From NCBI GenBank assembly GCA_964530555.1, contig CAZHBD010000002.1:1036-65035 (forward strand): a stretch of 64,000 bases of DNA. The letters are read 5' to 3'. Source of the stretch: an uncultured Candidatus Saccharibacteria bacterium (GTDB lineage: Bacteria > Patescibacteriota > Saccharimonadia > Saccharimonadales > AWTP1-31). Of the stretch, positions 7,937-8,179 are shown one piece after another. Made by a program: the position numbers and the translations under genes. Below the pieces are notes generated by a model. The model was not told the origin of the DNA and did not search any database. It was given only the letters and a program-made list of their open reading frames with translations. Positions within the stretch are counted from its first letter, which is position 1. The number at the start of each line of letters is the position of its first letter.

Positions 7937-8063
7937 TGTTCAGCCCATCTTTGTTGGCATGGCTCAGGGGCCTAAACCACCTTACCAAACATTTCTTGGC
8001 AAGGTATAATGCCCCCTGTTACATCTAGTTATAGAGAAGAGCAGTCCTTAATCAAAATGGGGG

Positions 8064-8165
8064 CCCAAGTTGAGGGGATTCAACTTGGGGAAGAGGAGCC
8101 GGCTTGATTAGTTTGTAGTTTTTGCTGAGCAAACTCGTTTTTTCAGCAGAATGACAAACTAATCA
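8064..8165 (+). ncRNA. conserved structured leader element upstream of tRNA-Pro(CGG): hairpin CCAAGTTGAGGGGATTCAACTTGG, AGGAG, then nested hairpin
   Basis: A near-identical element in the same relative position and orientation lies upstream of tRNA-His (24382..24482, minus). The outer stem of hairpin 2 differs in sequence but stays perfectly complementary in both copies (GATTAGTTTGT/ACAAACTAATC versus GATACATTTG/CAAATGTATC). Confidence 0.5.
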
Positions 8166-8179
8166 TTATACGGTGACGA

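Follow-up and report, generated by a model that had tools for sequence, protein, structure and literature searches.

The stretch of DNA considered here (hereafter the window; 64,000 nucleotides (nt) of contig CAZHBD010000002.1) derives from a genome of Candidatus Saccharibacteria (TM7), and encodes seven dispersed tRNAs as well as an RNase Y whose closest homologues are named Candidatus Saccharibacteria. The element in question is a structured RNA leader lying immediately upstream of two of these tRNAs, tRNA-Pro(CGG) and tRNA-His(GTG), with a variant copy upstream of a third, tRNA-Arg(TCT) (Table 1). The Pro and His copies follow a single plan: reading 5' to 3', the P1 hairpin comes first, then a stretch of unpaired purines ((G)AGAGGAG), then a 4-bp helix, P2, that closes around a long interrupted rod (P3/P4), and last a GACGA tail that terminates at the mature tRNA 5' end. 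All three copies belong to a widespread RNA family that is specific to Saccharibacteria, its distribution having been assessed within Saccharimonadia.

The initial annotation of this DNA had described a leader common to the Pro(CGG) and His genes, and much of that description stands. TATAAT-NN-CCCCTGTTA opens both units; the P1 hairpin is identical at 24 of 24 positions in the two copies (chance expectation 0), with no further match to it in the window at three or fewer mismatches; and P1 is followed in both by G(G/A)GAAGAGGAG and then by a long hairpin with a conserved inner part, GAGCAAACTYGTTTT. Spacing to the tRNA is nearly constant at 15-16 nt. The distance from promoter to P1 (~50 nt vs ~110 nt) is not conserved. 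An outer stem that had been called completely different in the two copies in fact shares 7 of its ~11 pairs; the compensatory pairing claimed for it is real and falls on three consecutive pairs (TAG/CTA vs ACA/TGT), with one further position differing. Overlooked at that stage were a covarying 4-bp closing helix (GCCG/CGGT in Pro, GGCA/TGCC in His), the variant copy at tRNA-Arg(TCT), and a different structured leader upstream of tRNA-Pro(TGG). Folded on their own, the Pro(CGG) and His copies each give two hairpins (z = -7.0 and -6.3 vs shuffles), and when folded in a joint precursor, as had been suggested, leader and tRNA cloverleaf form independently of one another.

Table 1. Coordinates of the leader copies, their parts and associated features in the window (R1, covariance model of the element)
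Feature	Position	Strand	Sequence or remark
'Type II' structured leader before tRNA-Pro(TGG)	7425..7523	+	hairpin, GGGAAAAGAGCAG, then ...GAGAAAAACCGCAGGUUUGUCUC; z = -2.3
Promoter-like site, tRNA-Pro(CGG) unit	7982..8010	+	TTACCA-17 nt-TATAAT; -10 box 8005-8010; 10/12 consensus matches, on consensus basis only
CCCCTGTTA block, tRNA-Pro(CGG) unit	8013..8021	+	starts 2 nt past -10 box; outside folded element
Small upstream hairpin	8024..8044	+	TCTA-GTTA-TAGA then GAAGAGCAG; sequence reading and motif match
P1 hairpin, Pro(CGG) copy	8065..8088	+	class 1, loop GGGGAU; CCAAGTTGA-GGGGAT-TCAACTTGG
Unpaired purine junction, Pro(CGG) copy	8089..8097	+	GGAAGAGGA (family consensus UUGAGAGGA); P2 begins at G8098
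Closed long hairpin, Pro(CGG) copy	8098..8174	+	R1 = 88.7 bits
P2, Pro(CGG) copy	8098-8101 with 8171-8174	+	GCCG with CGGU
P3, Pro(CGG) copy	8106-8116 with 8154-8164	+	
P4 apex, Pro(CGG) copy	8124-8147	+	GCUGA-G-CAAA-CUCGU-UUUU..UCAGC
GACGA tail, Pro(CGG) copy	8175..8179	+	presumed RNase P site at its end; tRNA follows directly
tRNA-Pro(CGG)	8180..8256	+	terminator-like hairpin after it, 8270-8303
tRNA-His(GTG)	24289..24365	-	terminator-like hairpin after it, 24256-24277
Tail and G-1 of tRNA-His	24366..24371	-	GACGU (24371-24367) then G-1; apex to tRNA 36 nt, not 35
Closed long hairpin, His copy	24372..24448	-	R1 = 97 bits
P2, His copy	24448-24445 with 24375-24372	-	GGCA with UGCC
P3 outer stem and apex, His copy	within 24372..24448	-	GAUACAUUUG with CAAAUGUAUC; apex GUUGAGCAAACUUGUUUUGUCGGC
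Purine junction, His copy	24449..24457	-	AGAAGAGGA
P1 hairpin, His copy	24458..24481	-	same sequence as Pro(CGG) P1
Promoter block, tRNA-His unit	24587..24603	-	-10 box TATAAT 24603-24598, CA, CCCCTGTTA 24595-24587
Variant copy before tRNA-Arg(TCT)	28513..28614	-	z = -3.95; no match to R1
Parts of the Arg(TCT) variant	within 28513..28614	-	P1 CCCAAAAAGA-UGUGAU-UCUUUUUUUGGG, GAAGAGGAG, closing helix GAAGCAA/UUGCUUC, tail UACGA

That the element is maintained as an RNA fold is indicated by compensatory change at several levels. In a 98-nt core alignment of 45 copies of the long-rod subtype, to which the Pro and His copies belong, RNAalifold finds 28 pairs, 19 of them with double changes. For the 27 pairs retained, 95.1% of cells are paired (76.5% in shuffles) and 236 are compensatory, compared with 73 +/- 7 in shuffles and 25-52 in slid controls; the copies are therefore not the product of a recent duplication without independent covariation, the case in which the initial annotation would have been mistaken. 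A short-rod subtype shows compensatory changes in 15 of 20 pairs. Among 97 unique elements, ~86% of P2 cells are paired, by many different pair types, and the P1 outer stem is 95% paired and likewise covarying. Copies inside one genome are 12-25% diverged from each other and keep every pair by compensatory change, which implies long-term selection on the RNA fold.

The perfect inverted repeat of P1, with its 6-bp spacer, could also be taken for a DNA-level operator or a protein-bound cruciform. We strongly disfavour this explanation and give it almost no weight: class-1 P1 arms found elsewhere remain perfectly complementary while changing freely in sequence, the asymmetric loop between them is kept, and the long-range 4-bp helix covaries. 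Moreover, sense-strand scores with covariance model R1 are 85-111 bits and drop to 15-25 bits for the antisense strand, and G-U pairs are confined to the sense (tRNA) strand, both of which are evidence against a double-stranded DNA site. The original preference for a functional RNA structure over a protein-binding site is thus upheld by covariation across ~34 other genomes together with the strand specificity of the structure.

The search of related genomes with a covariance model, as first proposed, was one of three routes by which further copies were sought, the others being a scan of genomes for the DNA pattern of the apex and a pattern scan of metagenomes; together they yielded more than 120 copies beyond the window. 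The apex pattern (GYYGAGCAAACTYGTTTTKTC), applied to 185,579 species genomes, returned 49 loci, comprising ~42 true elements from ~34 metagenome-assembled genomes (MAGs), nearly all labelled Saccharibacteria, and 7 bare chance matches in other phyla. Taxonomy here is that of the MAG record labels, and a few bins labelled 'Limnocylindria' carry Saccharibacteria-type 16S ends. The metagenome pattern (class-2 P1 core plus TTGAGAGGA) recovered at least 120 stretches; among the 121 matches listed, an intact tRNA lies at 60-85 nt in 60, ~13 precede an interrupted or truncated tRNA or a tmRNA, and the remainder are due to chance. R1 added more diverged copies upstream of tRNA-Leu, tRNA-Tyr and tRNA-Ser, as well as one upstream of an hsp20 open reading frame (ORF). 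The patterns determine what each set can say: in the genome set the apex is fixed and hence uninformative, leaving the junction motif, P2, P3 and the tail free to vary, and in the metagenome set the P1 core and junction motif are fixed.

The family is modular. P1 occurs in two classes, and most of the metagenome copies listed carry the second rod subtype, which is shorter and of different sequence (GAAGCAUAGC..GGUCGAAGCUUUUG..CAAAACGAG..GUAGGCUUC); rods of neither the long nor the short type also exist. What is universal across subtypes (P1, (U)UGAGAGGAG, P2 and GACGA) is all proximal to the junction with the downstream RNA, and it is the distal rods that differ. Within the window, the Pro and His copies have P1, the purine junction, a P2 that pairs with positions -9 to -6, and the apex that marks the long subtype, GAGCAAACUYGUUUU. 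The Arg(TCT) copy lacks this apex, contains within its closing helix a rod different from those of Pro and His, and is not matched by R1 even with filters off; it is a member of the wider family only. The orthologous tRNA-Arg(TCT) locus in a close relative (L001; L numbers denote individual loci) has a canonical long-type copy. As a separate observation, terminator-like hairpins ~250-350 nt past the 16S 3' end (L045, L123, L136, L013) have a conserved loop, AUUUGCGAGAG, that resembles class-1 P1, AAAUUUGCGAGAGGAUUCGC.

Every true element of the genome and metagenome scans precedes a tRNA, an interrupted or truncated tRNA, or a tmRNA (called by Rfam in L107, L060 and L178), and all copies from any route, save two orthologous ones at hsp20 to which we return below, are directly 5' of a tRNA or tmRNA, both of which are RNase P substrates. 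Those of the genome scan are all in sense orientation and serve Lys, Met, Gln, Arg, Gly, Trp, Leu, Ser, Ala, Thr, Tyr, Val, Ile, Pro and His isotypes. The register is exact. From apex to mature 5' end the distance is fixed at 35 nt (36 nt for His), and GACGA is matched at every position from -5 to -1 by 76-89 of the 97 unique elements, 83 of which have G at +1. The consensus is limited to element-bearing tRNAs, with none seen in tRNAs that have no element. In the His copies of L173 and L121, as in that of the window, G-1 falls outside the element, after the tail, so that the element is in register with the His-specific G-1 cleavage site.

Many copies occur 15-30 nt downstream of a -10 box. Others occupy tRNA-tRNA spacers of 127-146 nt (Thr-Tyr, Phe-Gly, Ser-Ser, and Ile-Ala of an rRNA operon), filling them to within 7-20 nt, and in L037 a copy begins 11 nt past tRNA-Leu. 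Because the element fills such spacers, it is not linked to promoters or to transcript 5' ends, and we reject a function confined to either. Copies in 16S-23S spacers were set aside as proof of internal location; three carry a TACAAT box of their own. The 16S leader of L095 is without the element, which in that rRNA operon is present only before the spacer tRNA. Two further proposals were discarded: no association was found between rod subtype and tRNA isotype, and pairing of P1 with the D- or T-loop of its own tRNA (GGAUUC/GAAUCC, AACCAA/UUGGUU) is contradicted by the occurrence of the same P1 classes before very different D-loops and before tmRNA.

In many of the tRNAs that follow an element, an insertion starting TGAGAAYTGCCAGTGGCARTTCG breaks the gene after the D-loop (L009 5350-5590; L129, L157, L083, L091, L098, L141, L159, L176). 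They could be small integrated elements or else group I introns, a kind of intron that has been reported from tRNAs in candidate-phyla-radiation bacteria. L009 has a duplicate of the first 25 nt of the tRNA, with a full tRNA copy after it, and L095 contains partial 5' and 3' duplicates of tRNA-Ile (6400-6640).

Comparison with close relatives, at loci syntenic around RNase Y (94% RNase Y identity in L001, 91% in L002), shows how readily the element changes. Upstream of tRNA-His, L001 has the same promoter block (TATAATCACCCCTGTT) followed 4 nt later by the tRNA, with no element between, and in L002 none of three tRNAs has an element. At orthologous loci, then, the window has the element where L002 has none and L001 has either none or a different form, so that gain and loss occur even among near relatives. 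In the Thr-Tyr spacer, different lineages have different rod subtypes, and subtype follows lineage. The two exceptional copies noted above are in the 5' untranslated region (UTR) of hsp20 in L042 and its close relative L180; their sequences have strongly diverged with pairing kept and with nearly identical flanks. No copy precedes hsp20 in L181-L183, and a general association with hsp20 was rejected, the occurrence being limited to one lineage. Taken as a whole the element gives the impression of a portable module, with loci copying or overwriting one another while selection preserves the fold. Of note for hsp20 itself, Saccharibacteria hsp20 genes have an upstream repeat, GTGTTGTAAATA, often twice and just before the -10 box (L180-L183 ~1250-1500; L042 4560-4640), that may be a heat-shock operator.

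Patchiness of this kind invites the explanation that the element is a portable or selfish structured repeat, akin to miniature inverted-repeat transposable elements (MITEs) or BOX elements, spread or homogenised among loci and tolerated since RNase P removes it harmlessly. Such a repeat would account for presence that differs at orthologous loci between genomes whose RNase Y is 91-94% identical to that of the window, for the gain at the hsp20 5' UTR in one lineage, for rods that track lineage and not isotype, as in the Thr-Tyr spacer, for the identical P1 on two window copies with differing rods, and for the partial tRNA duplications that adjoin some elements. We nevertheless think it unlikely. 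The element is always in sense orientation with its 3' edge always at a mature 5' end, its ends (CCAAAAU..., ...GACGA) are not inverted repeats, the comparison of window and L001 at tRNA-His reveals no target-site duplication, and there is no associated transposase; copies that have diverged by 12-25% still keep every pair, and none was found on the viral contigs scanned. A phage origin was considered and rejected, as phage DNA matches are limited to the tRNA itself and scans of viral contigs were empty or gave chance matches.

In the purine junction motif, A-G-G-A forms a core whose bases are either invariant or over 90% conserved, as judged from the apex-anchored set, which left this region free to vary. 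The motif can be read equally well in two ways. On one reading it would be an extended Shine-Dalgarno or STAB-SD-like site: GAGAGGAG gives 8 contiguous pairs with the 16S 3' tail CUCCUUUC, the tail having been read in L013, L045, L095, L123, L136 and L177. On the other, GAGGAG and CGACGA may zip together as G-C, A.G, G.A, G-C, A.G, G.A, an arrangement that we infer from invariant bases; the central pair, between the C of GACGA and the G that opens GGA, is proposed by RNAalifold itself and is G-C in 42 of 45 and 26 of 26 sequences. A small ORF behind the Shine-Dalgarno-like motif was rejected, the AUG being unconserved and located in P2. The conserved CR-I/CR-V pair of RNase P RNA was sought in 1.3 Mb of loci for complementarity to the junction and was not found, the one candidate checked with Rfam being an rRNA operon.

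If the first of these readings is correct, the leader might act as a STAB-SD-like stabiliser in which AGAGGAG pairs with the anti-Shine-Dalgarno sequence, and the bound 30S subunit together with P1 blocks 5'-to-3' decay of the precursor or of hsp20 mRNA. The defining sequence feature of STAB-SD, complementarity to the 16S 3' end with no start codon at a usable distance as judged from sequence, is found here, with the 8 contiguous pairs seen in six loci; A/G variation in the motif faces U residues, RNase Y is present, i.e. RNA decay of the Firmicute type, and there is a copy in an mRNA 5' UTR. Several observations make this an improbable account all the same: many copies are internal, right behind another tRNA; a tRNA needs no stabiliser, and its leader is removed anyway; the GACGA tail, exact register and long rod go unexplained; and the motif may instead pair inside the element, as in the tandem G.A model. 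To a regulated leader, whether riboswitch-like or a thermosensor, that gates tRNA maturation or hsp20 translation, we attach very little credence. The highly conserved junction nucleotides alongside covarying stems, the two possible alternative partners of GAGGAG, and a position adjoining the hsp20 Shine-Dalgarno sequence in one lineage would suit such a device, but terminators and anti-terminators are absent, the fold shows no evident pseudoknot or multi-stem pocket, nearly every tRNA isotype is served, and Rfam gives no riboswitch match.

We tentatively hypothesize that the leader is a cis-acting cassette, removed by RNase P, that insulates and presents the cleavage junction; no other explanation seems to us as probable, though we put it at somewhat short of even. 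Judging from its position, the element would be transcribed within the precursor, and RNase P would cut after GACGA to free a very stable RNA of 100-130 nt. The tandem sheared G.A / G-C helix would lengthen P2 as far as position -1, where it could stack on the acceptor stem. Such a cassette might keep RNA on its upstream side from base-pairing to the 5' strand of the RNA downstream, and may hold the scissile junction in one set geometry for an RNase P that is often structurally reduced; it would be portable, being gained, lost and overwritten between loci, with a swappable distal rod. Such a role is plausible because RNase P RNAs of candidate-phyla-radiation bacteria, which do keep this RNA, are often reduced, frequently lacking P13/P14 and the CCA-binding UGG (PMC8172020).

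A number of points weigh against the cassette hypothesis. Element-free tRNAs are common (Gly, Arg(TCG) and Lys in the window, where few bases separate the -10 box from the tRNA, and all three in L002), and with so many tRNAs lacking it the element cannot be required for RNase P. Rod loops are conserved per subtype while stems covary, which an insulator leaves unexplained and which points to a bound partner. Downstream of the hsp20 copies there is no RNase P substrate. The tandem G.A helix is built on invariant bases and so stands outside the covariation support, the purine motif may equally well be read as an 8-nt complement of the 16S tail, and both large datasets were ascertained by sequence patterns.

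A rival that we consider doubtful is that the element is a multi-copy small RNA gene riding on strong tRNA transcription units and using the downstream tRNA or tmRNA as a signal for 3'-end processing, with its 3' end made by RNase P and the free RNA binding a putative protein or 30S partner. Internal loops and apex conserved within each rod subtype, on stems that covary, are typical of protein-binding RNAs, and AGAGGAG, which is exposed, is complementary to the 16S tail over 8 nt. Copies that come and go at individual loci would be expected if only the pool of copies matters, and in tRNA clusters tRNA processing would set both ends of the element. Against this, universal conservation resides at the cleavage junction and not in the distal loops, unrelated rod subtypes share a genome or contig (Arg(TCT) vs Pro and His in the window; two copies in L092), and the hsp20 copies lack a downstream RNase P site.

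A more radical possibility is that the leader is an active partner in 5' maturation, either as a cis adaptor docking a reduced RNase P or as a new ribozyme cutting its own 3' edge with no need of downstream sequence. We regard this as a long shot; if true, part of the tRNAs, tmRNA and at least one mRNA of Saccharibacteria would be matured by a mechanism not known elsewhere. The ribozyme version, in which self-cleavage would make 5' maturation independent of RNase P, has some appeal in that the 3' boundary falls exactly at the mature 5' end whether a tRNA, a tmRNA or tRNA-His with its G-1 follows, and is shared by the hsp20 copies with no tRNA downstream, and in that the three-way-junction layout of the element has a purine-rich core. 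It is nonetheless highly improbable. Self-cleavage would leave a 5'-OH on the tRNA, Rfam gives no match at E < 10 to hammerhead, twister, pistol, hatchet or hepatitis delta virus (HDV)-like ribozymes, and UUGAGAGGA, as read from sequence, misfits CUGANGA; RNase P RNA is retained in these bacteria (PMC8172020), and element-free tRNAs still have short leaders that need removal.

Several other features of the window surround these leaders. The 'type II' leader of tRNA-Pro(TGG) is related to the main element only by its theme of a hairpin plus a purine motif. Type II-like leaders were detected in L001 (~13100-13202) and, upstream of tRNA-Tyr, in L082, and a conserved order (...GAAAAGAGCAG..., hairpin, GAGAAAAACCnnAGGUUUGUCUC, tRNA) is seen for tRNA-Pro(TGG) in two genomes and for tRNA-Tyr on a metagenome contig. 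The small hairpin upstream of the Pro(CGG) copy, together with the motif that follows it, reads as a degenerate second module of the same hairpin-plus-purine kind. The CCCCTGTTA block is probably a GC-rich discriminator or initial transcribed sequence common to tRNA promoters of this clade, and TATAAT-NN-CCCCTGTTG also occurs in L001, L011, L046, L047, L050 and L052. More generally, CCCCTGT(TG) and its complement ACAGGGG are enriched in the window (13 vs 5.4 expected), where sites include 8013-8021, 24587-24595, 7392-7398, 28696-28702, 31494-31500 and 63714-63720, and are also present in L011, L046, L047, L050 and L052. In both orientations they lie immediately past, or immediately before, -10 boxes at tRNA promoters, and they could serve as a GC-rich discriminator or as a binding site for some factor, particular to promoters of stable RNAs.

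A stretch low in GC (8235-16000; 0.43 vs ~0.50), with tRNA-Pro(CGG) at its edge, includes DUF488, a type III restriction-modification methylase (9024-10664) and a Res helicase (10667-13162). It is probably an acquired island, because neither L001 nor L002 has tRNA-Pro(CGG) at the corresponding syntenic position. Around tRNA-His, a 365-aa ORF in the mechanical ORF list (23529-24626, reverse strand) spans the tRNA and its leader and is an artefact, the true start of the S-adenosylmethionine (SAM)-methyltransferase gene being near 24233 on that strand. A 1082-aa ORF (24692-27940, forward strand) diverges from the tRNA-His promoter region, and has no Pfam match.

Bacterial tRNA 5' leaders are usually regarded as short and disposable, and to our knowledge none is known to form a conserved structured RNA family. 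With Rfam 15, at gathering score or E < 10, neither rod subtype matched any family: only tRNA, tmRNA and rRNA were returned, along with noise-level miRNA and snoRNA hits. No description of the element was found in the literature searched, where lysM-TM7 is the sole TM7-specific motif in a survey of 224 motifs (Weinberg 2017). The element defines a new RNA class whatever its role, whether it acts as a processing cassette, is released as an abundant RNA, binds ribosomes or is a novel kind of mobile RNA module. It is costly: ultra-small epibionts with reduced genomes of ~1 Mb retain a module of 100-130 nt before many of their tRNAs and tmRNA. It also gives a way into the RNA processing of candidate-phyla-radiation bacteria, a group with reportedly unusual RNase P RNAs, and a module that defines a 5' end independently of sequence would be useful as a tool.

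Set beside known systems, the element lacks what defines T-boxes, rrn antitermination leaders, MITEs and known ribozymes. With T-boxes it shares a long structured leader, conserved loops and a link to tRNA. T-boxes, however, are found ahead of aminoacyl-tRNA synthetase or amino-acid genes, sense a tRNA in trans and have a terminator/antiterminator at their end, whereas the element precedes the tRNA itself; it has no specifier, T-box sequence or leader terminator, and no T-box match in Rfam. Nor does it have the boxB-boxA-boxC features of rrn antitermination, the L095 16S leader being without the element and no boxA-like sequence being visible by eye, or those of MITEs and repetitive extragenic palindromic (REP) sequences, namely inverted repeats, target duplication and insertion in either orientation.

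By analogy the element partly resembles four other kinds of system. Pneumococcal BOX, Neisseria Correia, REP and MITE sequences are small structured interspersed repeats, and like them the element is modular (two P1 classes, several rods), multi-copy, patchy, presumably co-transcribed and strongly folded; it differs from them in being strictly sense and always at the 5' edge of an RNase P substrate, with no terminal inverted repeats or target duplications. STAB-SD and other 5' stabilisers, known from Bacillus mRNAs, have in common with it a Shine-Dalgarno-like GAAAGGAG/GAGAGGAG without a usable start codon beside a hairpin, and a setting of RNase Y-type decay, but the element is attached to, and presumably removed from, stable RNAs, is often internal, and has an exact cleavage register and a long conserved rod. 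In MALAT1/mascRNA and the plant tRNA-snoRNA dicistrons, which are eukaryotic and single-locus, 3' ends are defined by RNase P; here too the 3' end of the upstream RNA would come from RNase P acting at a downstream tRNA or tRNA-like fold, the difference being that a real tRNA or tmRNA lies downstream and the upstream RNA is a repeated bacterial family. Finally, 3'ETS-leuZ and internal spacers in E. coli are functional RNAs cut from tRNA precursors, and the element may similarly be a transcribed spacer of tRNA units, released by tRNA-processing nucleases and possibly having a role of its own. It differs from these in being a 5' leader or inter-tRNA spacer that is highly structured and multi-copy, with an architecture that is conserved class-wide and serves dozens of isotypes as well as tmRNA.

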